DNA of 53,524 nucleotides from NCBI GenBank assembly GCA_963588415.1, contig CAVAHB010000061.1, positions 1 through 53,524 of the forward strand, written 5' to 3'. The DNA is from Faecalibacterium sp. CAG:74. Lineage in GTDB: Bacteria; Verrucomicrobiota; Kiritimatiellia; RFP12; UBA1067. Numbering within the stretch: the first letter of the stretch is position 1; each line of letters begins with the position of its first letter. Below the pieces are notes generated by a model. It was not told the origin of the DNA and made no database searches. It was given only the letters and a program-made list of their open reading frames with translations. Positions 11,885-31,996 of the stretch are shown here, in pieces. The position numbers and the translations under genes are program-made.

Positions 11885-12289
11885 ATGAAAAGGGCATTTC
11901 AGAGAAAATGGGTGCTTGCGGCGGCGATTTCGATTGCCGCCGCCGGGTGCGATTGTAAGCGGGTTGAAAGCCAGACCGCCGCGCCGACGAACGCGCCGGC
12001 GGTCTCGCAATCCGATTCGGCCTACCGTGCGCGGCTCGACGCGCAGGTCGCGGAACGCACCCGGCTGACCGCCGTCCGCGGCCGCCTCGTCGTGCAGATG
12101 GAGGCGATGATTGAGGCCGAGCGCCGGGCGCGGCCCGGTGCGGACGACGCGGCAATCAAGGCCGCGTTGGAGGAAAAGCCCGAATGGAAGTCGCTCTACG
12201 GCAGGGTCGTGGACGTCAACGCGGCGCTTGAGGACAATCGCCAGCAGTCGATGGCCGTCGTCAGAAAACAACTGACGGGGAAACGGTAA
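11885..12289 (+). CDS. Small predicted lipoprotein (134 aa), helical/coiled-coil-like, function unknown.
   Basis: MKRAFQRKWVLAAAISIAAAGC has a lipobox-like AAAG|C. SD-like GGGAG lies 8-12 nt upstream of ATG 11885. The longer tracked ORF (from 11270) overlaps the giant gene in another frame and is not credible. Confidence 0.7.
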   Translation: MKRAFQRKWVLAAAISIAAAGCDCKRVESQTAAPTNAPAVSQSDSAYRARLDAQVAERTRLTAVRGRLVVQMEAMIEAERRARPGADDAAIKAALEEKPEWKSLYGRVVDVNAALEDNRQQSMAVVRKQLTGKR

Positions 12290-12316: not shown

Positions 12317-15300
12317 ATGAGGAAGTTGATCATGATGAAAAGGTTCATTCTTTCGTGTGCGGTGGCGGCATTCGCCGGCATTTCGGTTCTGGCGGAAGAC
12401 GCCGACCTCCGCTCCATCGACGCGGTGGGCGACTCGACTGTCTCCTACCCGAACGGTACGAGTCCCCTGAACGCGGGGCAGACGTTCTACATTCTCGTGC
12501 GTCTGCTGAACCAGGACTATGGCGAAACGATTGCTGGTGGAACGCCCCATCCGTGGTATTTCAAGTCGCTTACGGCCGGTTCGACGAATCTCGTCGAATA
12601 CATCGACAGGCCGATGCTCGCCCTTTCCATCGGCGGCAAGCGCGCCTACGCCGAATATACCTCGACAGGGCCGAAGGGCGAACTGAGCGGCCTCAACCGG
12701 GAGAAGGATGCCAACGGAAAGTTTGGCTACTACACCGACTTCTACTTCAAGCACACCGTGGAGGCGGGCGAACTCGGTCTTCCCGTGAAGCTGCTCGGCA
12801 AGAATGACGACCGCAAGGTCGGCGACGGTTCGTCCGAGGTGTTGATGGTCAACGTCAACACGGGGACGGACACCTACAACACATGGGATTTGACGAACGG
12901 CAGCACGAGCCCGCGCAATGCGGTGCTGAAGTTCGTGAACAACGGTGATATTAAACGCAACGTCATGTATCCCTCGACCCCCCACACCGCGCCGCGCACG
13001 GATGCGTCGCTTGCGGCGGAGGGCATCTACGTGCAAACGGTCGATTTCGATTCCGTCTACGACGACGAGGAGGCGGGCGTGTGGCGCGACGTCTACCCCG
13101 GGCTTTCGTCCGCCGTGCTCAATGCGCCTCGCCTGACGGGTTCGGGTCCGGCCACGGTCTACGTCTGGTCCGAGAATGAAGACGTGTTCGTCCCGGCCGG
13201 CAACAACGTGACGAACGTCAACGGAACGACGGTTCTTCCCGTCACGATCGGCAGCGGCGAGTCGTCCGCGTCGTTCAAGTTGCGCGGCGGTTCGGCGGAG
13301 GAAGGCACGACCTGCAAGATCTACATGAGTTCCACAACGTCGGCGGGTTATACCGACGTTGGCGATGAGATGGCGAACTCGACGGTTTCGCGCACGATTC
13401 GGATGCACGCCGCCCCTTCGCCGACCGTCACCTTCCGCCTGAACGGCGAAGACGACCGCGCCACCGTGACCTGTCCGACGACCAACTACTACGACCACGT
13501 GGCCCAGCTGACCGTGCGCCTTACGCCGGCCGTCGAGCACGATGTGTGGGTTGAACTCACGGCGAATCTGAACGGCACGGGCTATTTGTCGGACATCTAC
13601 GACGCGACGCTCCTCGGCATCAGCGAAAACGACGGCGGAACCGCCTATGAGAACCGGACGACGAAGGTCAGGATCCCGGCGGGTGAAAGCGTCGTCCAAC
13701 TCTATCTCTATTCGCTCGGTTGGACGAGCAAGACCGGCAGTTCGCAGCGCGGCATCGTCTTTGCGCCCGGCAAGATCTGCACCGACGAGGGAATGACGAT
13801 AGAAGACGGTGAAGTCTCGGCGAATTCGTCGGGCTGCACCCTGTTCGTGAACAGCGTCAGGCCGACGATTCTCAGCGTCGAGCCGGGCTACCCGACCGGC
13901 ACGGCGACGGCGGTCGGCGGCGTTCCGGCCGAGTTCCGCGTCACGCTCGCCGACTGCTACCGGAACAAGATGGACGAGGATACGGGCTATACGTTCAAGT
14001 GGACGTCGAGCGACAGTGAGGAACTGGAAGATTCCCCTGAAAAGGTGGAGGAGGACGGCGTTTTCACGCTCGACCAGACGTTCGTCCAGGCCGGGACGAA
14101 GACGATTAAACTTCGCGCGGTCGCCCCGTTCAACAATTCTTCGTCGGACACCGTCGAGTTCGAGCTCGTGGTCGGCAAGGCGAAACAGGTCACGGCGACC
14201 CTTCCGGGCGAGCAGCCGTGGCGCGTGGCCGAAGGCACGAGCCTGCCCGTGACGTTCGCCCTGGAGGGCGGCACGTCGAGTTCGACGACATACGCCTTCC
14301 TCGAACCGATCGACGAGGCGAGTTCGAATGCGGTCGACCTGTCGGTCGCGCCGTTTAAGACGGGCGTCGCGATTCCGAAGGGAACGTCGGCGGCCAGCTT
14401 CCAGCCCGACGTCTCGTTCCTCGATGGTACGCGCTCGTGTGAGTTCACGGTGAAACTTTCGTCCAGGCAGGAGGAGTACAAGAAGGTTGCGGGCTTTGAA
14501 AACGGCACGCTCTACGTCGTCGTGACGAACGTGCAGCCCGTCGTGACGGCGGTGACGGCGGGCGGTCTGCCCGTCGACAACGGCGGCACGGCGCGGAGCG
14601 TCCCGAAGGGCGTCAACACCTCGTTCCAGCTGTCGGCGACGGATGTCGTGGCGGACCTGGACGCGACGGGGAACGATGCGTTCATGACGAAGTGGGTGAT
14701 TTACGACGGCACGGCGACGAACATCGAGACGAACGGGAATCCGAACGGCATGACCGTCACGCACATGTTCAAGAACGACACGGTCGGTAGCGAGGGTGCG
14801 CTCGTGCAGGTCTTCCTGAAGGACAAGGATATGGCGGATTATCCCACGACGCCCGACTGGTCGTTCCGCGTGCCGGTCGCCAGGACGCCGCGCGTGACGC
14901 TCGCCTACGAGAGCGAGGCCGATACGGGCATCTGGTACGAGAACGAGAAGAACGCCCATGGCCTCAAGGTCGGGCTTTCGCAGGCGGCGACGGCCGAGGT
15001 TCAGGTCCGCGTCAGGGTGCCGAAGGCCGAAGACGGCGGCTACGTCAAGTTGAAGACGCGCACGAACGTCGTCTGGGAAGACCCCGTCAACGAGGACTGC
15101 TACATCGTCAAGTTCCCGATCGGCACGACTTCGCAGACGCTGACGGTGACGGAACTGGACGGCACCTCCGATACGTCGGCGGGCATCGACGTCGAGGCGT
15201 TCGTCATCACGACGGACGATTCCGGCTACGGGAAGCCGTGGAACGAATACTACGAGGCGGCGTCGCCGATTGCGCCGACGCTGAAAGTCCTGAACGTCGC

Positions 15301-18300
15301 CCCCGAAGGCGCGACCGTGCCGGCGGACGGTTCGACGAACACGAGCGCCAAGGTCTATACCAACTACACCGTGAAATACAAGGTGAACAGCGACGTGGCG
15401 GCCGACCTCGCCGGCGGCATCACGGTCGTTCTTTCGGTGGATGGCGATGAAGTCGAGACGACGAACGTGACGGATACGGTTCGGCGCGAGTTCGCGACGC
15501 CCGTCACGTTCACCTCGCCCGGCCTGAAGACGGTCACGGTGACTTTCACCGACAAGGACGAGAACTCCTCGACCTGCACGTTTTACTACAACGTCATGGA
15601 GACGAAGACGGTCGTCGTCTCGGCACACGATCCGGCGGCGAAGCGCAGTTCCTCGAACGGACACTCCAATCGCTACGGCAGCAACGCCAAGGGCCTTGGC
15701 GCAGGTCGCGTGGACGGTGAATCGGTCGAGCCGCAGAAAGTCGAAGGCTGGGTCTCGACCTTCTCCCTTGCCGTCACGGAATCCACTTTCCCCGTCGTTG
15801 CGACGGGCTATCAGGTGTCCGATCCGGTGAACAACAAGATTAATACGAGCGGTCGAGGACCGCTTGCGACGGGCGATACGCCCTACACCTATCTCTCCGA
15901 TTCGCGCGGCAAGGCGGGCTACGACAGTTTCTTCTACGCCTGGGTCTGCAACAACACGAAGACTTCCGACGGTCTTGAACTCGACACGGACATCATGTTC
16001 GGTCCCGGAAAGTCGAATACGCTCCCGATTCCCCTGCAGGACTACGATCCTGAGAAGAGCGCCTACGACACGCAATACTGGGAAGCCGTCTTCTCGAGGG
16101 AATGGCTCGCGAGCGACAACTGCGGCGACATCAACGCCGACGGCATTCCTGACGTCGTCGTGACGAAATACACCGGTTTCGGCATTTTCGACGAGAGCCT
16201 GACGAAGTCCGGCAACGACCTTGAGGATCTTTCGACCTGGAACGATGACGCGGACTTCTTCCCCAACACGGATACTTCGTCGTCCGCCTCGTTCATTCCC
16301 GGTCTCTCCAACACGTGGGTGACGGCGGGGACGCCGTTCGAGGCGCGCTTCGAGATCCGCGGCTGGTATGATAAGGGCGGCGAAGCGTCGAAGGCTCTCA
16401 ATGACGCGCTGCAGCAACTCGGATTTCTGGATGTCACCGCCGACGTCAATTTCACCGACCCGGCGACGGATGCAACGTCAACCCTTTCGCCCCTCGAATG
16501 GTGGGCGTTCACAAACTACTGCGCGAAAGTCGGGCGCGAGCCGACCGACACCACGATTTGGGCGGGCGGTTCGGACGCCCTCGCCTGGTCGCCCGAACGA
16601 CCGACCGACCCGACGATGACCGATACTGACGGCGATACGTTGCCGGACGGCTACGAATACTACGTCTGGTATCGTGCGCACGTCGGCTACAGCGCGAACG
16701 GCGGCTATACGAAACTGACGGGGCGGCGGTATAATCCGAAAGACCCGATGCACCCCGAAATCATCACGTCGGAGGAAATCGCCGCGCTCTACGACCCGCG
16801 TCACGACCTTTCGGGCACGGGCAGCGTCGGTATCTATACCGATACGGATAACGACGGCCTCACGGATCTCGAAGAGTTCGCGCTCGGAACGAATCCCTTT
16901 GACTTCGACACGGATGGCGACGGTCTGCCGGACGGCTACGAACTCGCGATTTCAGAAACGGATCCCCTGAAGTCCGCTTCGCAGGAATCGACGGCCGAGT
17001 CGGACGGTCTTGCGAACCCGGACGGCGACGCGATGGCGTTCTACACGGTCAAGTTGCCGATGCTCGGTTTTGCCGAGGAGGGTTCGGACGAAGTTTCGGA
17101 ATGCTGGTTCGGTGACAATGCGTGGACGCTCTTCTCCGCCGACGCGAGCGGAGCCAATCCGAAGGTCTGCTATTTCGTGAACGGCGCGGACGGAACGCGG
17201 TATCTCGTCACCGACGCCATCGTCTCCTACAAGAGGGACACGGAGGCACAGACGGCGACCGTGACCGCTTCGCTGAATGCGTATTCGGCGTGGGCGACGG
17301 GGAAGGTCGATAACGTGACGTTCTACTATCCGGGCGATGCGGCGGCGACGGTCGATCTGAACGGACTAGCCCTTAACTACGCCAAGCCGACGGAACTCGA
17401 CGCGGGCAACATCTACAAGTCGTGGGACTACGACGAGGGGACGCGAGTCGCCGGGGTCACGTGCGGCGCGGACGACCTCAAGAACCTCCTCAATCGGACG
17501 GTCGCGCTCAGCGTGACGACGAATCTCACGTTCATGCACTTCCAGGTCTACCAGAAGCTGGGCTACAACCCGCTGACGGCGACCTACTGGGAGTTGCCGG
17601 CTCCGTGGGCGGCCGTGAACACGAAGCGGTTCACCAACTACGACGAATACATGCTGATGACCTTCCTCTACCGTCAGGGATTGATTGCGGATGCGGATCT
17701 CGTGCAGACGTCGAACAGGAAGATGATGGCGATTTGGGAGAAGTTCACCACAGATCCCCTCAAGGCGGACTCCTTCGGACACGACATACCCGACGGCTGG
17801 GAACTCTACACGCTCTATGCGCCGGGCACGGCCCCTGCGGGATTGAACTCCGAAGGTCTGGGCATCTCGTCGCTGGCGGGCATCTGCCCGGTCTTGGCCG
17901 ATCCCGATCCCGACAAGGACCAGCTTTCGTTCGCCGAGGAGTTTGCGGGCATCCTTTCGACCAGTTTCTACCCGGCGAGCGACTACTGCACGATTGCCGA
18001 ACTCAATGAAAAGCAGCTGAAGTGGCGCAACAAACTGTGGGCGACCGACCCCTGGAACGAGGATAGCGACGGCGACGGCATCACCGACGGCAACGAATAC
18101 GCGGAAGCCTTCGTCTACGGGACGGAGGGTGTCGCGGGCGGCGGCCTGAACCCGCTCTCGTGGGATACCGACGGCGACGGCCTGCCCGATCCGTGGGAAC
18201 TCGAGTTCGCGGGCACGCACTCGGAGAACGCATCGTCGTCGAGTTCGACGAATGAAACGGCCAGCACCGGATGGAACAACGACGGCATGGACGGCACGGT

Positions 18301-21300
18301 GAACGACGCGATGCTCGACTATGACGGCGACGGCCTCCTCAACTGGCAGGAATACATGGTCGGTGCGATGCGGTGCTGGCGCTACGACGACACGGTTTCG
18401 CGCTGGTCGAGCCATGCGTTCAACGCCAAAACAATTCCGACGGACGAAACGTCGGAGGAATGGGGCAAGTTCTGGTATGGCGTTCTCGTGGACGAGCAGA
18501 ACACGGCGGACGATGAGAACGCGGAAGGCCAGTTCAACCCGCATCTCGTCGCGGGAACGTTCGATGCCGGCTCCTATTTCTCCCTCTGCACGAACGCCTG
18601 GGATCAGCAGGCCTACGGAAAATACTACATGTTCAAGGACGGGGTCTACCATGATCTGGCGAAGCCGCCGGCTGGCAAGTATATGGTGGGCGACAAGCAG
18701 TTCAACCGCTTCACCTACAAGGCGGCGACGGCGGACGACTGGTCTTCACCCCATGTCTTCGCAAGTCTCACCGGCCATTATCCGGCGAAATACATCACCT
18801 GTGATCCGCGCATGCCCGATACGGACGGGGACGGCATGGACGACTACTACGAACTCTTCCACGGTATGAACCCCCTGCTCGGTCTTGAGGGTGCGCGCGG
18901 AAGGGGCAAGATCCGCGACGTCGTCCACGAAGCGTATGACGCCTCGCAGACGATACGCGGGGTGGCGTGGAGCGCCTGCGAAAACTACTGGTATCCGAGC
19001 GACGATGCCTCCGAGTGCCATCGTCCGGTGCGGGCTAAGGCGAGCGGTGATACATCGGTCGGCGGCGGTGCGCTCTGGGACTTTGAGGCGTTCCCGTGGC
19101 TGACGGGTCTTGCGGCGGCCGACCCCGACGGCGACAACATCCGCAACGCCGAGGAGGCAATCATGCCCCAGCTTCAGGCCTCCTCGAACTATCTCCACAC
19201 CGACCCGACGCCGCTGTGGATGACGGATACGAGTTATACGAACAGTTTCACGGCGCGCTTCTATATGCCGCCGTCCGGTGCCGCGGCGTTCCCCAGCACG
19301 ACGGGATCGTTCACGTATGGCGGCAAGGTCTATCGCTTCGATTCCATTCCCGGCTTCAGGTGGGACGAGAAGAATGCGATGGTCTACTTCGACCGCAACT
19401 TCAACGTCTATACGATCAACAACTGGAATGTGAAGGGCGACTACTTCTTCAGTTTCGAGGAGAACGAGGGCTTCGATTCCGATCACGACTTCCTGAACGA
19501 CTACGAGGAAGGCCGAGGGCGGACGAAGACGGCCTCCGACCCACAGGATTCCGACGACCCCCTGCGCCGACAGGCCATGTGGTTCGGCGGTGACGAAAAC
19601 AAGTCCTTCCTCCAGTCGCACGTCTCCACGGAAGAGGAAGTGCCGGTCACGGAGGCAAGCGCCGAATTCCGCGAGAACTTCCTCTACTACACCGTCGAGT
19701 GCTGGGCGAAACCCGACCAGACGATTCTCGATTCGACCGAGTTGCGTACGCTGGTGGAACGCGCCATCTGGACTTCGCCTTCGGGCCCCGCCGACCTCAA
19801 GTATCTCCGCAAGAACTTCCTGATTGGCATCAGGAACGGCAAGTGGTACACGAAATACGATTCGGCCGGCACCGACAAGCTCCAGCCCGTCGAAATTACG
19901 GAAGGGCCGGTGGCCACGACGAACTGGACGCACGTGGCGGCCACCTACGACGGCAAGACGCTCGTGTTGTATGTGAACGGCGATTCGTCCGCTGGAATGT
20001 CGAAGGCTTCGAGCATCCAGCCCGAACATGGCGTCGCGGCGCGCAGTGCGATTGACGTCGGCGGCTGGACGAGATACCCGGCCATCTCCTATCTGGTCGG
20101 TGCATCGGCGCTCGACATGTCCGCCGTCTACTTCGACCTCGCCCAGCGCAGCGGCGGAGTGCTCAAGAACCCGACGTTCGAGGACTACGGGAACTATTAC
20201 AAGGGCTACATCGACGAAGTCCGCATCTGGGACGGCGCGCGGAGCGCGGCGGACATCGCGGCGGACGTCCAGAACCGCACGCGCTACACGCCCGCACTGG
20301 CAAGCGCGAATCGGCAGGCGGTTTATGCGGCCTGGTGTGAAGGCGCCACCCGCATGGACGGCAGCGTCGACAAACTCCCGGCCGAACTGAAATACCACTG
20401 GTCGTTCGACCATCTGTCGGGCGCGGTCGAAACGACCGACGTGATGACGACGCCGACCGGGTTCTCGACGAAGGGATCCATCACCGACGCGAAAGCCGTC
20501 TGGGTGCGACCCGAAGGCTGGAAATGCCCGTGGTGGGATGACATTACGGTGCGTTCCACGGTCTACACCGACACCGCGTGGGTGCCGTGGGTCAACAACA
20601 CCGTCTCGCATCTGCCGCTCCTTGACGGAACGACGCTCGACTCGGTCTACTGGAGCACGAACTTCGTCGGATTGGCCTCAGCGGTTGACAGCGGCTATCC
20701 CTACTTCACGTTCCCCCGGTCGGCGGAAGTCTACAGCCGCTGGACGCAGGTGATTTACGACGATGAAGCCACGGGAATCAAGACGACGCCGACGCGCTGG
20801 AACGTCGTCTCGACGAACGGCGAGCTGAAAGCGGCCTTCCGCTTCGCGCATCGCGACCACAACGTGCTCGGCGACGACCTCCTGCCGATGGGCGGCGCGT
20901 ATCCGAAGCGGATTTCCTCCACCGAGGGCGGAATGTGGGATGACCAGGGTGCGGCGGATGCGTGGGCGCAGACGGGAACGGACAGGAACAACCGCGGTCT
21001 GCCCGACTGGTGGACGGCACTCGCCAGGGGCGAGTACGTCTCCGACTCCTCGGCCACGATCAACTGGGATACGATGGTCGATTACGACGGAATCCGCATG
21101 ACGGCATGGGAGGCGTATCGCCGCGACTTGGCGCGCGGTATGCTCCCCGACGGCACATATCATCCCGAATTCGTCGATACGCGCGACCTTGACGGCGACC
21201 GCATCCCCGACTGGTGGGAAGACGCCTACGGCATCGATACCGGAAGCGCGGAAGACCAGTTTGCCGATGCGGATGGCGACGGACTTTCGAATTACGCGGA

Positions 21301-24292
21301 GTATCTCATCAGCGAGGTCTTCAAGTTCGCCCGTCTGGATCCGACGCTTCCGAAGACGGACGGAACGTGTCCCGACTATTTCCGCCGCGTTGGCGATCTC
21401 TATTTGGGCGAAATCTTCACCGACTTCGATCAGGTCGATGACCAGTGGGAGCGTCAATATGCGCAACCCGACGCGAATGGCATCATCTACGCGAACCAGT
21501 ATGTTCACGATCCGCAGAAGGATCTTGATAACGACGGCTGGTCGAACTTCGCCGAGGCGAAGGCGGGTACGAATCCGAGCAAGACAATCTCCTCGGCCAC
21601 GGGCGACGGGTATTTCATTCGCGAATATCCGATTCCCACGATTGATGCGACCGTTGTCTACAACGAGGCGGAGGCCATTTCGGCGCCAATCGTATTCAAG
21701 GCGTGGAGCAAGAAGACTGATCCCGGCATGACCAGCATTCCGGATGCCATCTGGTCGGTTGCGAACGTCAGTTCGAATGTTGAGGCATCAAGCCATACGA
21801 GATATTTTGGCATGAATCCGGCGGAAAAGAAAACCTACGTGCTTGGCGCGGGCATAGTGACGCCCGGGTCGGTGCGAATCTATTTCCGCGATCTGGCCTA
21901 TCGCCTCGTGTCGACGCTGAACGGCTACGATTATTTGAGTTATCACGGCGAAAGCACAAATGCCACATGGCATGCCGTCGTTGCGGATCGGTGGACCAGA
22001 AGCGGTGGCGAACTGTATGCGACGGTCGTTACGTCAACAGGTGCGACGAAGGAGGCTTTGGTCGGCTCGATTGATTACACGACGGGCGAGATGACCGTTG
22101 ATTTCTCGAACGGGATGTTGACGGGACATGCCTATTTCGGGACGACGGAGATTCCCTCCGGAGCCGAGAGCTTGTCTGCGGTTTGGTACGACAAGTCCAA
22201 CTTGGGCGGCAGCTACGTCCGCATTTCGTGGTCGGCGCAGATGGCGGGGCCCGATGCAACGGGCACCTACCACCTGTCGGAGGCCAACGGCTCCGGCGAT
22301 CAGCGCGGCTACATCCGCGAGGGATTGAATAAGTTCATCGCGTTCGTGGATAACGACGGCGACGGCGAGTATACGCCCGGCGAACCGTTCGGCTTTGTCG
22401 ATAACGTGGATGTCGGCTGGGACGGTGCGCGGTTCACCGTCGAACTGACCAAGACCCATCCGACGTTTGCCCGTATCGACCTTCGCACGGGCGATTCGGA
22501 TCGGATGCATTACTACCAGACCAACAGCGGCCTGACGACGAACGACACGGGAATCGTGCTCGACTCCTCGCCGAAGGAACGCATTCGCGTCATCCGCACA
22601 GCCGTGAACGGCTATGGAATCAACAAGAACGACTCCAACTTCCTGGACATCGAGGATCGCGTGGTGCTGGATAAGACCTTTGACCTCAACGTGCGGCACT
22701 ATCTGCACGAGGGCGACTTCCTGACGGACGGTGAACTCGATCTCGACTGGTCGAAGTTTGAAGGGGAGGTCTACAACAATTCCGCCCTCAATCTCTACGA
22801 CAACGCCGGAAACTGGCTGTTGGATCCGACGAACGTGATGTATCGAATCGTCCTTGGCGACGGCACGATTTCGCCGTCGGAGACGAACCGTCTCTTCCTC
22901 CTGAACGTCTCCCGTGCCTTTGATGCGACCAAGTTGCGCACGGTGCCGGAAATCACGGGGTGTGCTGTCGAGGGAATCTACTACAACGCCCGCCCGACGT
23001 TCTCGTGGACAATGCAGGGATTCAGTTCCTACACGGCCTTCCAGTTGCAGATTCTGGCGGAAGACGGAAAGAGCGTCATTTACGATTCGGGCGTTCGCCG
23101 CGCACCGAAGACGGATAAGGAAGGGAACTACCAGTGGACGGCCGACTGCTCGTTCGGCGACCAAACGCCGCAGGGCAAGATTCTGTCGCGTCGGGGCAAT
23201 TACAAGTGCCGCGTGACGATGTATAATTCGAAGTTCCGCCGTGCGAGCTGGTCGAAGACGGTCAATTTCTCGGCTGCGGTCAATTCCACCCGCGAAATGA
23301 ACGATCACGGCTATTCATCCATTGACGTGGTCGTGAAGTATGCCGGGCCTTCGAATGTGCTTGACCGCGTGGACAAGCTGAACCAGACGAATGGCATCAT
23401 TCGCGTTCAGGCGTTCCCGACGGCGGACTTCTCGGGCGAGCCGCTCGCCCAGACGTTCGTGACGAACGTGCTTGGTTCGTCGATTACGGATATGGCCCTG
23501 ACGCAACCCAATGCGCGTCTGACAGGCCTCCCGGCGAACGGAACCTACTACATCCGCGCCTACATTGATTCGGATGGCGACTTCCAGCACAGCGCGTGGG
23601 AATCGTGGGGCTGCGCGGCAAAGGCCGTTGTGATTACGGATTCGGATAAGTCCGCCCCGGTCGTCAACGTCTACATCGAGGATGCCGATACCGACGGCGA
23701 CTGGATCCCGGATGCGTATGAGTACGCCAAGGCCGGATGGAAAGGCGCGTGGGAATCCGTGAAGGACAAGATCCAGGCGGACGTCACGGGCGACGAGAAG
23801 GTTCTCTTCGACATCGAGACGTTCATCACCAGTCGCGGCGGTCTTTCCGCCGGCCTGTCGGGCATTCCTGCGACGATTTTCCAGAACGGGTCGTATGCGA
23901 AGATCCTCCTCGGCCTGTCGGGCGGCAACCTGTCGGCGGAAACGCTGTGCGCGGCGGTTCGCAGTCAGGCGACGGTCGATTCGAGTTCGGTGAAGATTAC
24001 GTCCCTGACGCTCGACCCCGAGGCCAGCCGCGTCGTGCTGACGGTCTCGGCCGACGTCCAGCCCTCTGTCGCCGGCCAGATCGTGAGTCAGGTCTACGGC
24101 ATTTCGGTCGCGTCCAAGAGCGTTTCCGTGAGGGTTTATGAAAAGAAGACCCTTGCCGAGGCCGACTGGACGCTGAAGACGACGGTGAGCGGCGTGGAAA
24201 TCGGCAACGGGCAGTCCGTCGTCGAAGCCCCGCTTGATTCGGGTCTGGACTTCTCCAGTGGATTCTACAAGATTGAGGTTGTGGAAGAATAA
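12317..24292 (+). CDS. Giant secreted protein (3991 aa). It has a signal peptide, PKD/Ig-like repeats, many TSP3-like calcium-binding repeats and a LamG (concanavalin-like) domain.
   Basis: Uninterrupted 12-kb ORF. Signal peptide is MRKLIMMKRFILSCAVAAFAGISVLA. At least 15 D-x-D-G-D-G/L-x-D-x-(W/Y)-E motifs are present, for example DTDGDGLPDGYE, WDTDGDGLPDPWELEF and MPDTDGDGMDDYYELFHGMNPL. LamG signature: WTHVAATYDGKTLVLYVNGDS ... GYIDEVRIWDGARSAADI. Confidence 0.88.
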   Translation: MRKLIMMKRFILSCAVAAFAGISVLAEDADLRSIDAVGDSTVSYPNGTSPLNAGQTFYILVRLLNQDYGETIAGGTPHPWYFKSLTAGSTNLVEYIDRPMLALSIGGKRAYAEYTSTGPKGELSGLNREKDANGKFGYYTDFYFKHTVEAGELGLPVKLLGKNDDRKVGDGSSEVLMVNVNTGTDTYNTWDLTNGSTSPRNAVLKFVNNGDIKRNVMYPSTPHTAPRTDASLAAEGIYVQTVDFDSVYDDEEAGVWRDVYPGLSSAVLNAPRLTGSGPATVYVWSENEDVFVPAGNNVTNVNGTTVLPVTIGSGESSASFKLRGGSAEEGTTCKIYMSSTTSAGYTDVGDEMANSTVSRTIRMHAAPSPTVTFRLNGEDDRATVTCPTTNYYDHVAQLTVRLTPAVEHDVWVELTANLNGTGYLSDIYDATLLGISENDGGTAYENRTTKVRIPAGESVVQLYLYSLGWTSKTGSSQRGIVFAPGKICTDEGMTIEDGEVSANSSGCTLFVNSVRPTILSVEPGYPTGTATAVGGVPAEFRVTLADCYRNKMDEDTGYTFKWTSSDSEELEDSPEKVEEDGVFTLDQTFVQAGTKTIKLRAVAPFNNSSSDTVEFELVVGKAKQVTATLPGEQPWRVAEGTSLPVTFALEGGTSSSTTYAFLEPIDEASSNAVDLSVAPFKTGVAIPKGTSAASFQPDVSFLDGTRSCEFTVKLSSRQEEYKKVAGFENGTLYVVVTNVQPVVTAVTAGGLPVDNGGTARSVPKGVNTSFQLSATDVVADLDATGNDAFMTKWVIYDGTATNIETNGNPNGMTVTHMFKNDTVGSEGALVQVFLKDKDMADYPTTPDWSFRVPVARTPRVTLAYESEADTGIWYENEKNAHGLKVGLSQAATAEVQVRVRVPKAEDGGYVKLKTRTNVVWEDPVNEDCYIVKFPIGTTSQTLTVTELDGTSDTSAGIDVEAFVITTDDSGYGKPWNEYYEAASPIAPTLKVLNVAPEGATVPADGSTNTSAKVYTNYTVKYKVNSDVAADLAGGITVVLSVDGDEVETTNVTDTVRREFATPVTFTSPGLKTVTVTFTDKDENSSTCTFYYNVMETKTVVVSAHDPAAKRSSSNGHSNRYGSNAKGLGAGRVDGESVEPQKVEGWVSTFSLAVTESTFPVVATGYQVSDPVNNKINTSGRGPLATGDTPYTYLSDSRGKAGYDSFFYAWVCNNTKTSDGLELDTDIMFGPGKSNTLPIPLQDYDPEKSAYDTQYWEAVFSREWLASDNCGDINADGIPDVVVTKYTGFGIFDESLTKSGNDLEDLSTWNDDADFFPNTDTSSSASFIPGLSNTWVTAGTPFEARFEIRGWYDKGGEASKALNDALQQLGFLDVTADVNFTDPATDATSTLSPLEWWAFTNYCAKVGREPTDTTIWAGGSDALAWSPERPTDPTMTDTDGDTLPDGYEYYVWYRAHVGYSANGGYTKLTGRRYNPKDPMHPEIITSEEIAALYDPRHDLSGTGSVGIYTDTDNDGLTDLEEFALGTNPFDFDTDGDGLPDGYELAISETDPLKSASQESTAESDGLANPDGDAMAFYTVKLPMLGFAEEGSDEVSECWFGDNAWTLFSADASGANPKVCYFVNGADGTRYLVTDAIVSYKRDTEAQTATVTASLNAYSAWATGKVDNVTFYYPGDAAATVDLNGLALNYAKPTELDAGNIYKSWDYDEGTRVAGVTCGADDLKNLLNRTVALSVTTNLTFMHFQVYQKLGYNPLTATYWELPAPWAAVNTKRFTNYDEYMLMTFLYRQGLIADADLVQTSNRKMMAIWEKFTTDPLKADSFGHDIPDGWELYTLYAPGTAPAGLNSEGLGISSLAGICPVLADPDPDKDQLSFAEEFAGILSTSFYPASDYCTIAELNEKQLKWRNKLWATDPWNEDSDGDGITDGNEYAEAFVYGTEGVAGGGLNPLSWDTDGDGLPDPWELEFAGTHSENASSSSSTNETASTGWNNDGMDGTVNDAMLDYDGDGLLNWQEYMVGAMRCWRYDDTVSRWSSHAFNAKTIPTDETSEEWGKFWYGVLVDEQNTADDENAEGQFNPHLVAGTFDAGSYFSLCTNAWDQQAYGKYYMFKDGVYHDLAKPPAGKYMVGDKQFNRFTYKAATADDWSSPHVFASLTGHYPAKYITCDPRMPDTDGDGMDDYYELFHGMNPLLGLEGARGRGKIRDVVHEAYDASQTIRGVAWSACENYWYPSDDASECHRPVRAKASGDTSVGGGALWDFEAFPWLTGLAAADPDGDNIRNAEEAIMPQLQASSNYLHTDPTPLWMTDTSYTNSFTARFYMPPSGAAAFPSTTGSFTYGGKVYRFDSIPGFRWDEKNAMVYFDRNFNVYTINNWNVKGDYFFSFEENEGFDSDHDFLNDYEEGRGRTKTASDPQDSDDPLRRQAMWFGGDENKSFLQSHVSTEEEVPVTEASAEFRENFLYYTVECWAKPDQTILDSTELRTLVERAIWTSPSGPADLKYLRKNFLIGIRNGKWYTKYDSAGTDKLQPVEITEGPVATTNWTHVAATYDGKTLVLYVNGDSSAGMSKASSIQPEHGVAARSAIDVGGWTRYPAISYLVGASALDMSAVYFDLAQRSGGVLKNPTFEDYGNYYKGYIDEVRIWDGARSAADIAADVQNRTRYTPALASANRQAVYAAWCEGATRMDGSVDKLPAELKYHWSFDHLSGAVETTDVMTTPTGFSTKGSITDAKAVWVRPEGWKCPWWDDITVRSTVYTDTAWVPWVNNTVSHLPLLDGTTLDSVYWSTNFVGLASAVDSGYPYFTFPRSAEVYSRWTQVIYDDEATGIKTTPTRWNVVSTNGELKAAFRFAHRDHNVLGDDLLPMGGAYPKRISSTEGGMWDDQGAADAWAQTGTDRNNRGLPDWWTALARGEYVSDSSATINWDTMVDYDGIRMTAWEAYRRDLARGMLPDGTYHPEFVDTRDLDGDRIPDWWEDAYGIDTGSAEDQFADADGDGLSNYAEYLISEVFKFARLDPTLPKTDGTCPDYFRRVGDLYLGEIFTDFDQVDDQWERQYAQPDANGIIYANQYVHDPQKDLDNDGWSNFAEAKAGTNPSKTISSATGDGYFIREYPIPTIDATVVYNEAEAISAPIVFKAWSKKTDPGMTSIPDAIWSVANVSSNVEASSHTRYFGMNPAEKKTYVLGAGIVTPGSVRIYFRDLAYRLVSTLNGYDYLSYHGESTNATWHAVVADRWTRSGGELYATVVTSTGATKEALVGSIDYTTGEMTVDFSNGMLTGHAYFGTTEIPSGAESLSAVWYDKSNLGGSYVRISWSAQMAGPDATGTYHLSEANGSGDQRGYIREGLNKFIAFVDNDGDGEYTPGEPFGFVDNVDVGWDGARFTVELTKTHPTFARIDLRTGDSDRMHYYQTNSGLTTNDTGIVLDSSPKERIRVIRTAVNGYGINKNDSNFLDIEDRVVLDKTFDLNVRHYLHEGDFLTDGELDLDWSKFEGEVYNNSALNLYDNAGNWLLDPTNVMYRIVLGDGTISPSETNRLFLLNVSRAFDATKLRTVPEITGCAVEGIYYNARPTFSWTMQGFSSYTAFQLQILAEDGKSVIYDSGVRRAPKTDKEGNYQWTADCSFGDQTPQGKILSRRGNYKCRVTMYNSKFRRASWSKTVNFSAAVNSTREMNDHGYSSIDVVVKYAGPSNVLDRVDKLNQTNGIIRVQAFPTADFSGEPLAQTFVTNVLGSSITDMALTQPNARLTGLPANGTYYIRAYIDSDGDFQHSAWESWGCAAKAVVITDSDKSAPVVNVYIEDADTDGDWIPDAYEYAKAGWKGAWESVKDKIQADVTGDEKVLFDIETFITSRGGLSAGLSGIPATIFQNGSYAKILLGLSGGNLSAETLCAAVRSQATVDSSSVKITSLTLDPEASRVVLTVSADVQPSVAGQIVSQVYGISVASKSVSVRVYEKKTLAEADWTLKTTVSGVEIGNGQSVVEAPLDSGLDFSSGFYKIEVVEE
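16611..19540 (+). other. Region dense in TSP3-like calcium-binding repeats within the 3991-aa protein.
   Basis: Repeated Asp-rich DxDxDG loops followed by aromatic-Glu. Further copies lie at ~21181-21570, ~22350-22390 and ~23683-23725. Confidence 0.7.
19570..20290 (+). other. LamG / Laminin_G_3-like jelly-roll domain within the 3991-aa protein.
   Basis: WTHVAATYDGKTLVLYVNG (nt 19924-19980) and IDEVRIWDGARS (nt ~20209-20245) are hallmark strands of LamG-like domains. Confidence 0.75.
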
Positions 24293-24337
24293 TCGCGGCC
24301 CGTTTCGCGAATCGTGCAAGTGATGGATGGTGACAAG

Positions 24338-25477
24338 ATGAAGAAGGAAATCAGAAAAGTTTTGGTTGTCAACTCGGGTTCGAGTTCGCTCAAATACCAG
24401 CTCTTTGACATGAAGACTGAAACGCGGCTTGCCAAGGGTCTCGTGGAGCGAATTGGCGCGGGCGGACCCGCCAATCATGCCGAGGCACTGGCAAAGGTTG
24501 TCGCCGACCTCGGCAATCCGACCGACATTGACGCAATTGGCCATCGGATTCTGCACGGGGCCGAGGTCTTCAAGGATTCCGTCCTGCTGAACAAGGCGAA
24601 TCTGGCGAAGGTTCGGAAACTCGTCAAGTTCGGGCCGCTCCACATGCCGGCGAACCTTGGGGGCGTCGAGGCCTGCGAAAAGATCTTCAGGGGCGTTCCG
24701 AACGTCGGGGTTTTTGATACGGCCTTTCACCAAACGATGCCCGACTGCGCGGCACTTTATGCGATTGACCCGAAATACTACAAGAAGTATGGCATTCGCA
24801 AATACGGTTTTCACGGCACGTCGCATAAGTTCGTTACCCGGGCGGCGGCGGAATACCTCGGCAAGCCGCTTTCGAAGGTGAATCTTGTCACGTGTCATCT
24901 TGGCAACGGTTCATCGCTGGCGGCCGTTAGGAATGGCGAGGTCGTCGATACGACGATGGGGCTTACGCCGCTTGCGGGGCTTGTGATGGGCACGCGCTGC
25001 GGTGACATTGACGCGGCGGCGGTTCTGGCCATCATGGCAGCGGAGAAGCTTTCGCCTGCCGAGATGGATACGATTCTCAACAAGAAGTCCGGACTTCAGG
25101 CCGTTTCGGGTGTCGCGGGCGGCGATTGCCGCGACATCTGTGCACGGGCCGAGAAGGGCGACCGTGCGGCGGAACTCGCGCTTGAGATGCTGGCCTACCG
25201 CACGGCCCTTTACATCGGGGCCTACAATACGGTTGTAGGCGGTGCGGACGCGATTGTCATGACGGGCGGCATCGGCGAGAATTCATCCGAGGCGCGTGCG
25301 CGGATTATCGGACGGCTTGGGGCTTTGGGCGTCAAGTTGGATCGTCGGGCGAACGCCAAGGCGCATGGCGTGACGGCCGTTCTTTCGACGAAAGACTCGA
25401 AGATTCCCGTCGTCGTGTTGCCGACGAACGAGGAACTGATGATTGCGCGCGATACGGTGCGCGTTCTCTCGAAGTAA
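24338..25477 (+). CDS. ackA: Acetate kinase.
   Basis: MKKEIRKVLVVNSGSSSLKYQLFDM at the N-terminus, plus FHGTSH and the MTGGIGENS motif. I prefer the ATG at 24338 over the tracked GTG at 24314. Confidence 0.95.
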   Translation: MKKEIRKVLVVNSGSSSLKYQLFDMKTETRLAKGLVERIGAGGPANHAEALAKVVADLGNPTDIDAIGHRILHGAEVFKDSVLLNKANLAKVRKLVKFGPLHMPANLGGVEACEKIFRGVPNVGVFDTAFHQTMPDCAALYAIDPKYYKKYGIRKYGFHGTSHKFVTRAAAEYLGKPLSKVNLVTCHLGNGSSLAAVRNGEVVDTTMGLTPLAGLVMGTRCGDIDAAAVLAIMAAEKLSPAEMDTILNKKSGLQAVSGVAGGDCRDICARAEKGDRAAELALEMLAYRTALYIGAYNTVVGGADAIVMTGGIGENSSEARARIIGRLGALGVKLDRRANAKAHGVTAVLSTKDSKIPVVVLPTNEELMIARDTVRVLSK

Positions 25478-25490
25478 AGGAGATTGCGAA

Positions 25491-26528
25491 GTGAGTGCGA
25501 TAGCGGATATTATCAAGCGGGCATCGAAGTTGAACGGGACGATTGTCCTGCCGGAGGGGATGGATCCCCGCGTCATTACGGCGGCCTGTGCCTGTGTGGA
25601 TCGCCACATCTGTACACCCGTCGTTCTCGGTACGGCGGAGGAGATTGCCGTTGCGGAGGAGAAGGCCGGCTTGCACCTCACCGACCGTGCCATTCAGACG
25701 ATTGACTACACGAAGGGCGATGCGGAACTTGAGGCGGCCTATCTTGAGGCCTGGAATGCGAAGGAATCGCGCAAGCCCGCCGAGAAGCAGAAAATCATCG
25801 ACCTCGCGGGTGCGCAGAAGACGCTTCGTACGAAGCGCATTTACTTCGGCGGCATGATGGTGAAGTTGGGGCGGGTCAATGGACTTGTCGCGGGTTCGAT
25901 TGCCTCGACGGGCGACATGCTGCGGGCGGCCTTCCACACGCTGGGAACGCAAAAGGGCGTGAAGACGGCGAGTTCGTGCTTCCTGCTCGACCTGAAGAAC
26001 CCCACCCCGTCGGGCGATTCCGTCCTGGCGTTCGGCGACTGCGCCGTCATTCCCAATCCGACGGCCGAACAACTCGTGGATATCGGCCTTGCCACGGCGC
26101 AGACCTATCGCGACCTGACGGGTTGCGCCCCGCGTGTCGCCTACCTGAGTTTCTCGACGAAGGGGAGCGCGGCGGGCGAACTCGTTGAGAAGGTTCAGAA
26201 AGCCGTTGAACTTGCAAAACCACGCTTTGCCGAGAAGGGCATTCCCATGGATGGCGAACTTCAGTTCGACGCGGCGATTGCTCCCGCCGTCGGCCGCCTG
26301 AAAAATCCTGACGGAACGATTCAGGGAAATGCAAACGTCTTCATCTTCCCCGACCTTCAGGCGGGCAACATCGGCTACAAGATCGCTCAGCGCCTCGGCG
26401 GCGCGACGGCAATCGGCCCGAATCTCCAGGGCCTTGCCAAGGCGATGAACGACCTTTCACGCGGATGCTATGCCGAGGACATTGTCGGCACAATCTGCGT
26501 CACCCTCCTCCAGAGTACAACGAAATAG
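25491..26528 (+). CDS. pta: Phosphate acetyltransferase (short form).
   Basis: GTIVLPEGMDPRVITAA and ANVFIFPDLQAGNIGYKIAQRLGGA are typical PTA_PTB motifs. A GTG start at 25491 lies 8 nt after AAGGAG (25477-25482). The tracked start at 25443 overlaps ackA. Confidence 0.92.
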   Translation: MSAIADIIKRASKLNGTIVLPEGMDPRVITAACACVDRHICTPVVLGTAEEIAVAEEKAGLHLTDRAIQTIDYTKGDAELEAAYLEAWNAKESRKPAEKQKIIDLAGAQKTLRTKRIYFGGMMVKLGRVNGLVAGSIASTGDMLRAAFHTLGTQKGVKTASSCFLLDLKNPTPSGDSVLAFGDCAVIPNPTAEQLVDIGLATAQTYRDLTGCAPRVAYLSFSTKGSAAGELVEKVQKAVELAKPRFAEKGIPMDGELQFDAAIAPAVGRLKNPDGTIQGNANVFIFPDLQAGNIGYKIAQRLGGATAIGPNLQGLAKAMNDLSRGCYAEDIVGTICVTLLQSTTK

Positions 26529-26535
26529 GAAACGA

Positions 26536-27525
26536 ATGACGGCAAACGACCAGATTCAGCGGGCGCGGCAAGTCTTCGACATTGAAATCGAAGGGCTTCG
26601 GCGGACGCGAGACTCCATCGGGAAAAGTTTCACCGATGCGGTCGAACTGATGCTGAATGTCGTTTCAAATGACGGTATCGTCGTCGTTTCTGGCGTTGGC
26701 AAGAATCTTCACGTCGCCGAAAAGATGAGCGCGATTTTCGCCTCGACGGGTACGCGCTCGATTGTCCTGAATCCCGTGCAGGCGATGCATGGCGATCTCG
26801 GCATGGTTTCGGCGCGTGACGTGCTGCTGGCCCTTTCGTTCAGCGGCGAATCGGACGAAGTCATTCGCCTGATTCCAGCGATTCGACGGCACGGTCTGAA
26901 GGTCGTTTCCATGACGGGCAATTCCAACTCGACGCTGGCGCAGATGAGCGATGTGCACATTGAGATTCCGTGCGGACGCGAGGCTTGTCCGTTCGGCATG
27001 GCCCCAACGAATTCGACGACGGCGACGATGGCGATGGGCGACGCTTTGGCGATGGTGATGATTGATGCGCAGAAGTTCCCGATTGAGAATTATGCGATGA
27101 ATCATCCGGCAGGCGCGATTGGTCGTGCGCTCGTCATGAAGGTGACGGACGTGATGCGCACGGGCGAACGGTTGGCGCGTGTTGCGCCGACGGCGACGGT
27201 GATGGAGACCCTGCTGGCCATGACGAAGGCCCAGTCCGGTTCGGCCGTCGTTTCGGATGCGGATGGCCTTCTGCTCGGTATCTTTACGGACGGTGACTTC
27301 CGGCGGATTATGGCGCAGGCGGCGGATCGTTCGGGTGTTCTCGGCGACCGAATTGAGACGCACATGACGCACGAGCCGCTGTTCGTCCGCGACGATGTCT
27401 ACGCGGCTGAGTTACTGAAGGTCTTCGAGCGGAAACGGATTGACGACCTTCCCGTGTGCGATTCGCTCGGCCATGTCGTCGGTCTTGTCGATATTCAGGA
27501 TTTGCCCAAAATGAAGGTTCTCTAA
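26536..27525 (+). CDS. kpsF: KpsF/GutQ-family arabinose-5-phosphate isomerase (SIS domain plus tandem CBS domains).
   Basis: SIS motif VVVSGVGKNLHVAEKMSAIFASTG. The C-terminal CBS pair includes DLPVCDSLGHVVGLVDIQDL. ATG at 26536. Confidence 0.88.
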   Translation: MTANDQIQRARQVFDIEIEGLRRTRDSIGKSFTDAVELMLNVVSNDGIVVVSGVGKNLHVAEKMSAIFASTGTRSIVLNPVQAMHGDLGMVSARDVLLALSFSGESDEVIRLIPAIRRHGLKVVSMTGNSNSTLAQMSDVHIEIPCGREACPFGMAPTNSTTATMAMGDALAMVMIDAQKFPIENYAMNHPAGAIGRALVMKVTDVMRTGERLARVAPTATVMETLLAMTKAQSGSAVVSDADGLLLGIFTDGDFRRIMAQAADRSGVLGDRIETHMTHEPLFVRDDVYAAELLKVFERKRIDDLPVCDSLGHVVGLVDIQDLPKMKVL

Positions 27526-27544: not shown

Positions 27545-28270
27545 ATGAACGCGAAACAGATGATTCTCCTGACAACAGTTCTCTCGGTTGCCGCCGTGGT
27601 GGTTGCCGCGCCGACGCGGAAGTCTGCGCGTAATGCGAAGGCGGACGCTTCGGAAGAGGCGGCACCCGTTTCGGGCGTCGATGCGAAGATTACGATCGAC
27701 CAGTTCCCGAAGACGGGACGGGCCTCAACGCTGATGGCTCCGTCCCTGTCGGGAGCTTCCATCATCGGCCAGTGCTATACGAAGCCGCGCAAGTGGATTG
27801 TGCTCGAGTCGAAGTACACGACGTATGCCCGCTGGCAGGATCAACTGACCTTTACCTGGCATGTGCTGCTTGAGACGAAGAGCGCGACGGAGAAGGACAA
27901 GACGGATAAACTCCCCCCCTACTCCTATTTTTCCACGTCCGTCACCTACGCGAACATTCCGAAGGGGTCGCATGCGGCGAGCGTCTGTCTGCATCCCTCC
28001 TACCTTGAGCGGTATGGCGAGCCGAAGGCAATCGGTCTTGTGATTGCGAACAAGGAAGGCACGGTTCTGGCCGGCGACTGCGAGAGTGAAATCAAGGGCA
28101 TCCCGACCCACCCGAAGACGCTTGAGCAGGCCTTCTGGAACAACAACGACATTATGAACGCCACGCAGAACGGCGAGCCGATGATCGAGCGCCGTCAGGG
28201 TCTGCAGGATCGCGCGAAGACGATTTGGTCGATGGTGAATCCGAATGACTACGAAATGGTGGTGCAGTAA
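27545..28270 (+). CDS. Secreted protein (241 aa). This is the first gene of the pilus-like module and is Amuc_1102-like by position and size.
   Basis: Signal peptide MNAKQMILLTTVLSVAAVVVAAP. Its stop overlaps the next start (TAATG at 28268-28272). I could not verify sequence-level homology by eye. Confidence 0.6.
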   Translation: MNAKQMILLTTVLSVAAVVVAAPTRKSARNAKADASEEAAPVSGVDAKITIDQFPKTGRASTLMAPSLSGASIIGQCYTKPRKWIVLESKYTTYARWQDQLTFTWHVLLETKSATEKDKTDKLPPYSYFSTSVTYANIPKGSHAASVCLHPSYLERYGEPKAIGLVIANKEGTVLAGDCESEIKGIPTHPKTLEQAFWNNNDIMNATQNGEPMIERRQGLQDRAKTIWSMVNPNDYEMVVQ

Positions 28271-31978: not shown

Positions 31979-31996
31979 GCGGAATTAGGTTATAAT
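31968..31996 (+). promoter_or_regulatory. Putative internal sigma70-type promoter for the secretin gene (TTGAAC, 17-bp spacer, TATAAT).
   Basis: TTGAAC at 31968-31973, exactly 17 bp of spacer, TATAAT at 31991-31996. SD-like GAAGGA lies about 12 nt before ATG 32030. Confidence 0.55.

Follow-up and report, generated by a model that had tools for sequence, protein, structure and literature searches.

The stretch of DNA analyzed here, referred to throughout as the window, comprises 53,524 nucleotides (contig CAVAHB010000061.1 of assembly GCA_963588415.1, positions 1 to 53,524) and was deposited under the name Faecalibacterium sp. CAG:74. It belongs to an uncultured gut member of the Kiritimatiellae, represented by a 2.3-Mb metagenome-assembled genome (MAG) that is 91% complete and has 62% GC. 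On its plus strand lies one uninterrupted frame (12317-24292) of 3,991 codons, encoding a predicted acidic product of 436 kDa (pI 4.47, Asp 8.5%) that we refer to as the giant. A sequence-only reading of this DNA had proposed a secreted protein of 3,991 amino acids (aa), built of beta-sandwich modules, TSP3-type Ca2+ loops, one LamG domain and further beta modules, and having no recognizable C-terminal sorting signal. The open reading frame (ORF) proved intact and begins with a Sec signal peptide, and the overall architecture was borne out. The absence of a sorting signal stands for the known classes; overlooked in that reading was a C-terminal domain (CTD), conserved throughout the family and common to other proteins. 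The features of the gene and its product are listed below in order along the window (kaa, thousand amino acids; pLDDT, the per-residue confidence of AlphaFold2).

12317..24292 (+): giant gene, 3,991 aa; full-length homologues of 3.9-6.5 kaa known
12317..12394 (+): Sec signal peptide of the signal peptidase I type (SPI), aa 1-26; N-terminus MRKLIMMKRFILSCAVAAFAGISVLA/ED
12395..13900 (+): N-terminal region, aa 27-528; no Pfam match at E<=5 on slices, and no PDB match with the family profile
13901..16102 (+): array of ~6 Ig-like beta-sandwich modules, aa 529-1262; AlphaFold2 pLDDT ~80-87
16124..16153 (+): FG-GAP-like Ca2+ loop GDINADGIPD, aa 1270-1279; invariant columns, weak FG-GAP match (E=0.04)
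16613..19531 (+): core with 9 canonical TSP3 loops (aa 1433, 1507, 1529, 1913, 1948, 1998, 2165, 2267, 2385) and 2 degenerate ones
17117..17416 (+): variable insert in the core, aa ~1601-1700; 12% mean identity against 28-49% in flanking sequence (38 homologues)
19634..20266 (+): LamG / concanavalin-like jelly roll, aa ~2440-2650; PF13385 at 3e-15
20267..21166 (+): Trp-rich conserved region after LamG, aa 2651-2950; 38-42% mean identity, among the most conserved
21179..21577 (+): three canonical TSP3 loops, aa 2955, 2982 and 3067; found by regular expression and by a hidden Markov model (HMM) built from the loops themselves
21638..23680 (+): C-terminal array of ~6 beta-sandwich modules, aa 3108-3788; AlphaFold2 and Foldseek
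23678..23968 (+): last TSP3 loop (aa 3788-3808) and helical linker to ~aa 3884; pLDDT 37-44 at residues 723-757 of the modeled slice
23993..24289 (+): CTD, aa 3893-3991; 6 strands and 1 helix, pLDDT ~80, ending SGFYKIEVVEE-COOH

The signal peptide is the sole hydrophobic window with a Kyte-Doolittle value above 1.6, and the remainder of the chain contains no stretch resembling a transmembrane (TM) segment. Its basic n-region and Ala-rich h-region are kept in the family consensus, in which no Cys is conserved. A lipoprotein (signal peptidase II, SPII) reading of the N-terminus (ILS/C14) was considered and rejected, as it would leave an h-region of just four residues and would depend on that non-conserved Cys. 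Pfam recognized just two families on the whole chain, Laminin_G_3 and TSP3_bac. Searches of ten overlapping slices (420 aa) at E<=5 yielded further hints that were weak and non-significant only (HYR, InlK_D3, FG-GAP, EF-hand), and in phmmer and profile searches of the giant against PDB sequences the LamG part alone was matched significantly.

A C-terminal domain shared among otherwise unrelated proteins

The last residues of the giant conform to the consensus SGF[FY][KR][VI]x[VI]xx-COOH. This terminal strand is kept in 61 fetched relatives, and no complete family member among those fetched lacks it; variants include SGFYKIEVVEE, GGFYKVEIEQ, KAFFKVRLVK and SGFFKVKLEK, and the preceding ~100 residues align as one domain. 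When a profile of the CTD was compared with 1.84e9 representative proteins, 335 clusters were recovered at E<=1e-3, and in 149 of the best 150 of these the best match ends no more than ~10 residues from the end of the protein; the single exception (P0203) has a match that ends ~41 residues short. In one further protein of 571 aa (P0219) the second half of the profile was matched six times in tandem, the sole internal and repeated case seen.

Sharing of the domain beyond the giants emerged only with a 109-position CTD profile and an iterated HMM of the tail. A BLASTP search of the giant's own genome for paralogues with the same C-terminus had matched only TSP3 stretches, and an initial 143-position HMM of the C-terminus found no paralogues there. 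The 109-position profile recovers mostly the giant family and its fragments; applied to 61 genomes of the order, it also matched ORFs that are not giants. The iterated tail HMM identified 11 ORFs in the giant's own genome, namely the giant and ten others (contigs C41, C60, C61 with the giant, C80, C86, C124, C129, C139, C142 with two, and C153), and no match ends more than 6 residues short of the stop codon. On these other proteins the tail spans ~70-90 aa, with endings such as TSGFYMIKVEK, SGFFRVKVED and RFFKVTVEIK. All six tail-bearing ORFs with an intact N-terminus show Sec signal peptides. Their passenger domains are diverse, comprising BspA-type leucine-rich repeats (LRR_5), Listeria-Bacteroides repeats (Flg_new), a right-handed Beta_helix, FGE-sulfatase and CHB_HEX_C. 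Elsewhere in the order, 20 matches on proteins other than giants were sampled from 15 genomes, and 19 of these end 0-6 aa before the stop; the tail is also found behind LRR, BACON or Flg_new passengers in additional Kiritimatiellae proteins. A loose regular expression for the end motif, applied to the giant's genome, returned 8 proteins where 1.75 were expected, two of the eight being unrelated false matches. The strict terminal position, the diversity of the passengers and the presence of Sec signals are together the hallmarks of a domain for C-terminal sorting or anchoring. At the least, the information-free C-terminus implied by the sequence-only reading gives way to a conserved domain of ~100 aa that is terminal on other multi-domain proteins as well.

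No Pfam or NCBIfam model matched the last 200 aa of the giant or four other tail proteins at E<=5, and comparison of the CTD profile with the PDB revealed a non-significant resemblance to Ig constant domains only (E >=0.06). Five more ORFs of the same genome (C19, C74, C108, C127 and C130; 471-1,146 aa) end in [ST]GF[KR]IIIR-COOH, a related second signature.

Signals of known export pathways were sought in the giant and none was detected, whether a known C-terminal sorting domain, an autotransporter or an RTX signal of a type I secretion system (T1SS). The RTX nonapeptide pattern GGxGxD has zero matches in the chain; LPxTG is absent from it, PEP does not occur in the final 60 aa, and no hydrophobic window lies outside the signal peptide. 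Neither Por_Secre_tail, the CTD model of the type IX secretion system (T9SS), nor any other C-terminal model of Pfam or NCBIfam matched the giant. No autotransporter family of Pfam was matched, and the AlphaFold2 model of aa 3100-3991 contains no C-terminal beta-barrel. SprA_N was not found in the genome, and equally not in 14 control genomes, which renders that search uninformative.

A conserved core between two beta-sandwich arrays

Between its two arrays of beta-sandwich modules the giant carries a region in which calcium-type loops are dispersed through conserved sequence. TSP3_bac (PF18884) scores 51.3 bits against a cut-off of 25, and the strict pattern [DN]x[DN]x[DN]xxx[DN]xxE occurs 13 times. 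A small HMM constructed from these 13 loops recovers all of them with scores above 20, along with six degenerate remnants scoring below 0; the remnants at aa ~1824 and ~2894 correspond to full loops in the family consensus. The Asp/Glu columns of the loops are invariant across 32 homologues. The count of more than 15 loops proposed earlier is thus reached only when the remnants are included (13 + 6), the canonical loops numbering 13, and the description of the center as saturated with them does not hold: nine loops lie in aa 1433-2405 at a spacing of ~100 aa, embedded in conserved non-repeat sequence, three in aa 2955-3087 and one at aa 3788. The last four of these, together with the C-terminal sandwich array, agree with the prediction of further loops and beta modules after LamG. 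Ahead of the first TSP3 loop, the FG-GAP-like loop GDINADGIPD has seven invariant columns (G1270, D1271, I1272, N1273, D1275, P1278 and D1279).

The single LamG domain predicted at ~19.57-20.29 kb was confirmed in that position. Laminin_G_3 (PF13385) scores 57 bits against a cut-off of 27.6, with Laminin_G_1 and Laminin_G_2 giving weak matches to the same region. Since the best Pfam stretch covers aa 2458-2568 and a DEVRIWDGARS motif lies at aa ~2632, we place the domain at aa ~2440-2650 (19.63-20.27 kb). A family profile of this part matched the LamG-like domain of pappalysin-2 (3.6e-11), an S-layer-domain protein (4qvs; 2e-8) and pentraxin PTX3 among PDB sequences. In the region that follows (aa 2651-2950), many W, P and G columns are invariant or nearly so, and no Pfam (slices, E<=5) or PDB match extended into it beyond the LamG part.

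Structures were predicted for two segments (aa 520-1719 and aa 3100-3991) by AlphaFold2, each with a 39-sequence alignment cut from related loci. The first model has a mean pLDDT of 72.8. Its sandwich array resembles, in Foldseek searches of the PDB, the Ig arrays of mastigonemes (3e-16), C-cadherin and the macroglobulin (MG) domains of C3b; the first TSP3 stretch (aa 1270-1567) is modeled largely as coil with short helices at pLDDT 70-89, and aa 1568-1719 fall below 50. The second model (mean pLDDT 80.9; predicted template-modeling score, pTM, 0.68) comprises sandwich modules, a helical linker and the terminal domain. Its array matched MG and FN3 arrays only (C3c at 5e-7), and the last module resembles DUF2141, whose family PF09912 is precomputed on several relatives. 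Of the "PKD/Ig-like" character earlier ascribed to the N-terminal modules, the Ig-like part is supported by these models, and both motifs then quoted (aa 558-602 and 1073-1093) fall inside the modeled array; PKD is not, as PF00801 gave no match at E<=0.01 on the whole giant or at E<=5 on the 420-aa slices, and it is precomputed on a few relatives only.

A giant family confined to Kiritimatiellia

The giant belongs to an unnamed family that is confined to Kiritimatiellia and known mostly from gut and rumen MAGs. A word-indexed search recovered over 200 proteins in which both Pfam domains occur, at lengths of 3.9-6.5 kaa, and homology with many relatives of 3.9-4.3 kaa runs end to end at 95-100% coverage; the few family proteins that bear a name are MAG proteins of "Kiritimatiellae bacterium". 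A scan of one genome per GTDB species revealed at least 431 related loci. The 75 that were fetched stem from MAGs of human (Hadza, Nepal), ruminant, yak, chicken and comparable gut origin, and their labels read Kiritimatiellae, Kiritimatiellia, Verrucomicrobia or "Lentisphaeraceae". When 201 genomes were sampled evenly across the phylum, the giant was found in 30 (E<=1e-20), all of the same class; within its own GTDB family it is present in 7 of 8 other sampled genomes, in one copy each. We found no paper on the giant family or its tail; the literature recovered deals with the giants of Omnitrophota or PUNC01 and with a gene cluster of Akkermansia.

Members of the family can be at least twice as large as this one, as frames of at least 9,319 aa (L042:9968-37924) and at least 8,565 aa (L097:9941-35635) run off the fetched DNA. 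In other loci the longest frame is cut short (L061; 3,036 aa) or ends in Arg-rich sequence of out-of-frame appearance (L038 and L076), attributable to frameshifts or assembly errors. Eight loci (L031, L032, L034, L045, L059, L061, L067 and L072) are deposited under unrelated names, for example Barnesiella intestinihominis, Gemmiger sp., Alistipes onderdonkii, Limosilactobacillus gorillae and Methanomethylophilaceae archaeon, and are probably mislabeled bins.

Sequence divergence within the family is rapid and uneven. Giants are 30-38% identical between genomes in which Pta is 82-88% and the secretin encoded nearby 45-52% identical. Conservation peaks at aa ~1200-1600 and 1900-3100, is intermediate in both beta-sandwich arrays and reaches its minimum at aa 1601-1700 (12%). 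The segment aa 3201-3300 (21% mean identity) is the most divergent window in comparison with a 64%-identical orthologue, followed by aa ~1601-1700. Rapid divergence relative to neighboring genes, together with such variable patches, describes an evolution typical of exposed proteins.

Genomic neighborhood

The giant gene is immediately preceded by a small lipoprotein gene and followed by housekeeping genes and a pilus-like cluster:

11885..12289 (+): small helical lipoprotein, 134 aa, lipobox AAAG/C; ends 27 nt before the giant start
24314..27525 (+): ackA, pta and kpsF-like (SIS+CBS) genes, assigned by Pfam; directly 3' of the giant
27545..35203 (+): Amuc_1102-like protein, PilM, Amuc_1100-like protein, 365-aa TSP3 protein and 1,057-aa secretin; Pfam PilM_2, TSP3_bac and Secretin

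The lipoprotein gene is the giant's most constant companion. An ORF of 110-190 aa with a lipobox abuts the start of the giant in ~45 of 60 loci, including those of a divergent 3.5-kaa subfamily, and a homologous lipoprotein of 148 aa occupies the same place beside a relative that is 30% identical. On the other side, ackA lies directly 3' of the giant in 51 of 60 related loci. No plus-strand terminator-like site was found between the giant stop and ackA, and terminator-like sites of the region are not above chance.

The downstream cluster is of the type described as "pili-like" in Akkermansia (Amuc_1098-1102), whose products are abundant envelope proteins (PMC5332112). Two Pfam families, PF28178 and PF28028, are precomputed on the syntenic genes of one related locus (L001). 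The TSP3 protein or the secretin lies within 10 kb downstream of the giant in 38 of the 42 loci with enough flanking sequence. The 365-aa protein (30881-31978), at the position of PilP, has an N-terminal TM segment, a CxxC...CxxC pair (CRFCTKPIPFGSKTCWAC) and two TSP3 units; over 94 aa, these units are 41% identical to the loop pair 2955/2982 of the giant (aa 2946-3037).

This association is neither universal nor exclusive. In a genome of the same family (G197) the giant, at 3.69 Mb, is separated by 360 kb from the Amuc_1102-like gene at 3.33 Mb, and the cluster is absent around the giants of two other genomes (G191 and G116) and of the 3.5-kaa subfamily (L089-type). Phylogenetic profiling against Amuc_1098-type clusters, which had been suggested as a check, revealed no strict coupling: among the 201 sampled genomes, giant and Amuc_1102-like marker occur together in 20, the giant only in 10 and the marker only in 29. 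Moreover, the genome contains five secretin (PF00263) genes (on C22, C138, C121 and C40, and at 34364-35119 of the window), so that the neighboring secretin is not the sole candidate channel. With linkage limited to one family-level clade, co-occurrence loose and five secretins present, adjacency is a lead, and not evidence, for export of the giant via this secretin.

Possible location and export of the giant

Our favored interpretation, to which we give about an even chance, is that the giant is a Sec-exported, non-repetitive envelope or surface protein forming a calcium-stiffened, glycan-binding arm, and that its tail serves as a shared sorting or anchoring domain. The two Ig-like beta-sandwich arrays (aa 529-1262 and 3108-3788) would then act as spacers, separated by a core in which 13 TSP3-type loops are threaded through conserved non-repeat sequence around the one LamG. 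From what is known of these families, the TSP3 and FG-GAP-like loops would be expected to bind Ca2+ and thereby rigidify the core, and the LamG jelly roll to bind glycan, while the fast-diverging patches at aa ~1601-1700 and ~3201-3300 may be exposed or face a ligand. The context suggests that the protein may be presented at the cell surface or released from it. The terminal domain might target its passengers to the outer membrane or surface, or retain them there, functionally resembling the CTD of T9SS cargo; it is proposed in this role because the same tail closes other Sec-dependent proteins with surface-type passengers. The upstream lipoprotein, given its position, might be a dedicated partner such as a tether, pilotin or chaperone. 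A more far-reaching version of this proposal holds that the domain of ~70-110 aa ending in [SG]GF[FY][KR][VI]x[VI]xx-COOH or RFF[KR]VxV-COOH is an undescribed sorting or anchoring signal of Kiritimatiellia, recognized by an unknown outer-membrane pathway and thus a counterpart, in the Planctomycetes-Verrucomicrobia-Chlamydiae (PVC) superphylum, of the T9SS CTD, with the giant as the largest cargo and the lipoprotein as a cargo-specific partner; this we advance only tentatively, as a possibility that is somewhat doubtful.

Several considerations weigh against a surface arm sorted by its tail. The putative surface location is deduced only from the domain types and the company that the tail keeps, and the predicted calcium and glycan binding from family membership. 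Fold assignment covers about half of the chain, aa 1-528, ~1720-2440 and 2651-3100 falling outside it. No recurrent neighbor gene that might encode a dedicated machinery was found near the tail-bearing ORFs, and the tail profile built from the giant's own genome, which has 12 matches at home, has at most two in any other genome and matches in just 11 of 150 others; that profile is too narrow for counting tails elsewhere. Finally, the tail could be an ordinary Ig-like cap that owes its terminal position to structure. In its full form, this last alternative views the giant as an ordinary secreted or surface adhesin whose CTD is an inherited structural end-cap with no sorting role, the similar strands elsewhere reflecting an Ig-like F-strand or a tyrosine-corner-type pattern. 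The faint likeness of the CTD to Ig constant domains alone (E ~0.06) speaks for it, as do the preponderance of giants and their fragments among matches of the 109-aa profile, the failure of any machinery gene to co-localize and the poor transfer of the own-genome tail profile to other genomes. We nevertheless regard it as unlikely: the tail lies within 0-6 aa of the stop on unrelated passengers in 11 of 11 cases in this genome and 19 of 20 sampled elsewhere, a pattern that domain shuffling without positional constraint would not yield, and the end motif is in excess of expectation even though two of its eight occurrences are false.

Two other alternatives concern the route and destination of the giant. 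It could be the cargo, tip or associated adhesin of the neighboring Amuc_1102-to-Amuc_1098-type machine, passed through that secretin after Sec export, with the shared TSP3 units as possible docking sites. Consistent with this, the order giant-ackA-pta-kpsF-Amuc_1102-PilM-Amuc_1100-TSP3 protein-secretin persists in 38 of the 42 loci with enough flanking sequence despite giants that are ~30% identical; intergenic gaps are short, with no convincing terminator after the giant; and the TSP3 pair of the cluster protein resembles that of the giant. Precedent exists in Omnitrophota, where genes of TSP3/dockerin giants adjoin loci resembling type II secretion systems (T2SS) (bioRxiv 10.1101/2023.11.21.568195), and the cluster proteins of Akkermansia are abundant in the envelope (PMC5332112). 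Yet three housekeeping genes intervene, and the TSP3 similarity is that of two generic repeats only. The adjacency, moreover, is limited to one GTDB family, within which it is already lost (G197), and is absent at G191, at G116 and in the 3.5-kaa subfamily; ten sampled genomes have a giant with no detectable marker and 29 a marker with no giant; and the genome has five secretins. Taken together, these points make such a route quite unlikely. Still more improbable, in our estimation, is that the giant is an intra-envelope Ca2+-dependent scaffold, periplasmic or tethered to the outer membrane and held by its lipoprotein partner, and no surface adhesin at all. The signal peptide is indeed its sole recognized export feature, with no recognized signal for outer-membrane translocation, and the lipoprotein is conserved; a second group of ORFs ends in the similar strand [ST]GF[KR]IIIR; and bacterial TSP3 repeats occur also in the periplasmic linkers of OmpA-like proteins. 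Against these stand the dimensions of a 436-kDa chain with ~12 or more sandwich modules, which by our estimate would, if extended, far exceed the width of the periplasm, the presence of the same tail on BspA-LRR, Listeria-Bacteroides-repeat and beta-helix proteins, which are typically extracellular, and the very fast divergence of the giant relative to its housekeeping neighbors.

Kiritimatiellia are common and almost uncultured inhabitants of human, ruminant and poultry gut communities, and we know of no account of how they attach to mucus, fiber or other cells. The giant gene occupies ~0.5% of the 2.3-Mb genome, its family is present almost throughout one clade from gut and rumen, and it evolves much faster than its neighbors; it is therefore a prime candidate for the main contact structure of these bacteria. 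Giant Ca2+-binding surface proteins are of a known kind, whereas the sorting domain may be new. If the tail does serve as a tag for sorting or anchoring, sequence alone would suffice to define the surface proteome of these organisms, and the tag would indicate a route of export or attachment that is still undescribed for the PVC superphylum. Such a tag would also make the long-standing question of how the giants leave the cell testable.

Relation to known systems

The closest functional analogues of the giant are the RTX-type giant adhesins. LapA, SiiE and MpIBP-type adhesins are T1SS substrates, with RTX nonapeptides and a C-terminal T1SS signal and without a Sec signal peptide. They resemble the giant in being acidic proteins of several hundred kDa with arrays of Ig-like spacers, calcium-dependent rigidity and a lectin-type module. 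The giant is nonetheless not a member of this group, as it has a Sec signal and no GGxGxD; in addition, it has no tandem near-identical repeats and retains a conserved core of ~1,850 aa with dispersed TSP3 loops. The closest published relatives in kind are the dockerin-type giants of Omnitrophota, which are likewise PVC-related, rich in TSP3/EF-hand Ca2+ loops, proposed to function in attachment and encoded near T2SS- or pilus-like loci (bioRxiv 10.1101/2023.11.21.568195). Those proteins reach at least 30,000 aa, are highly repetitive and possess C-terminal TM anchors and SecA-like domains (bioRxiv 10.1101/2023.11.21.568195), in contrast to the non-repetitive chain of 3,991 aa described here, with no TM segment beyond its signal peptide and a different, soluble CTD.

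Cargo proteins of T9SS that bear Por_Secre_tail offer the nearest parallel to the tail, sharing with the tail proteins a Sec signal, surface-type passengers, a common C-terminal beta-sandwich of ~70-100 aa and a representation of about a dozen per genome. The tail differs in having no match to CTD models at E<=5, in stopping right after its GFYxVxV strand and in its occurrence in a lineage outside the Fibrobacteres-Chlorobi-Bacteroidetes (FCB) group; to our knowledge, no cleavage or attachment is known for it. Within the core, the combination of DxDxDGxxDxxD/E loops, which have little regular secondary structure, and a concanavalin-like jelly roll recalls the signature domain of thrombospondin. 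Eukaryotic TSP3 repeats, however, are contiguous, disulfide-bonded and wrapped on a lectin domain, whereas the loops of the giant are Cys-poor, ~100 aa apart and interleaved with conserved non-repeat sequence. CglD and MtsD of Myxococcus are also TSP3-bearing envelope proteins, with roles in adhesion or cohesion, and theirs are the sole named NCBIfam models that matched the giant. These matches cover TSP3 stretches only and lie below the cut-offs (CglD, NF033765, 42 bits against 400; MtsD, NF047639, 30 bits against 800), and the giant is a member of neither family.

Other genes near the giants

Upstream of the lipoprotein gene, the window encodes another large protein:

2913-11834: first giant, 2,973 aa, with a poly-Gly-rich N-terminus; ends ...FFKWTLDTDLVPLAIPVLKADDTYETK, without the shared CTD

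A homologue of this first giant lies upstream of the 3,991-aa gene in 24 of 46 loci. It is preceded in the window (1868-2872) by a gene for a pseudopilin-type protein that carries a methylation motif at its N-terminus (FTLIELLVVIGIIGILAG) and an H-x9-DG-like motif at its C-terminus; a homologue of this protein is kept in just 3 related loci. In the 3.5-kaa subfamily the giant is flanked instead by genes for an FHA/sigma-54 activator (L089:7835-9253, minus strand) and a 1,487-aa M6-peptidase/MAM/He_PIG protein (L089:20445-24908, plus strand).

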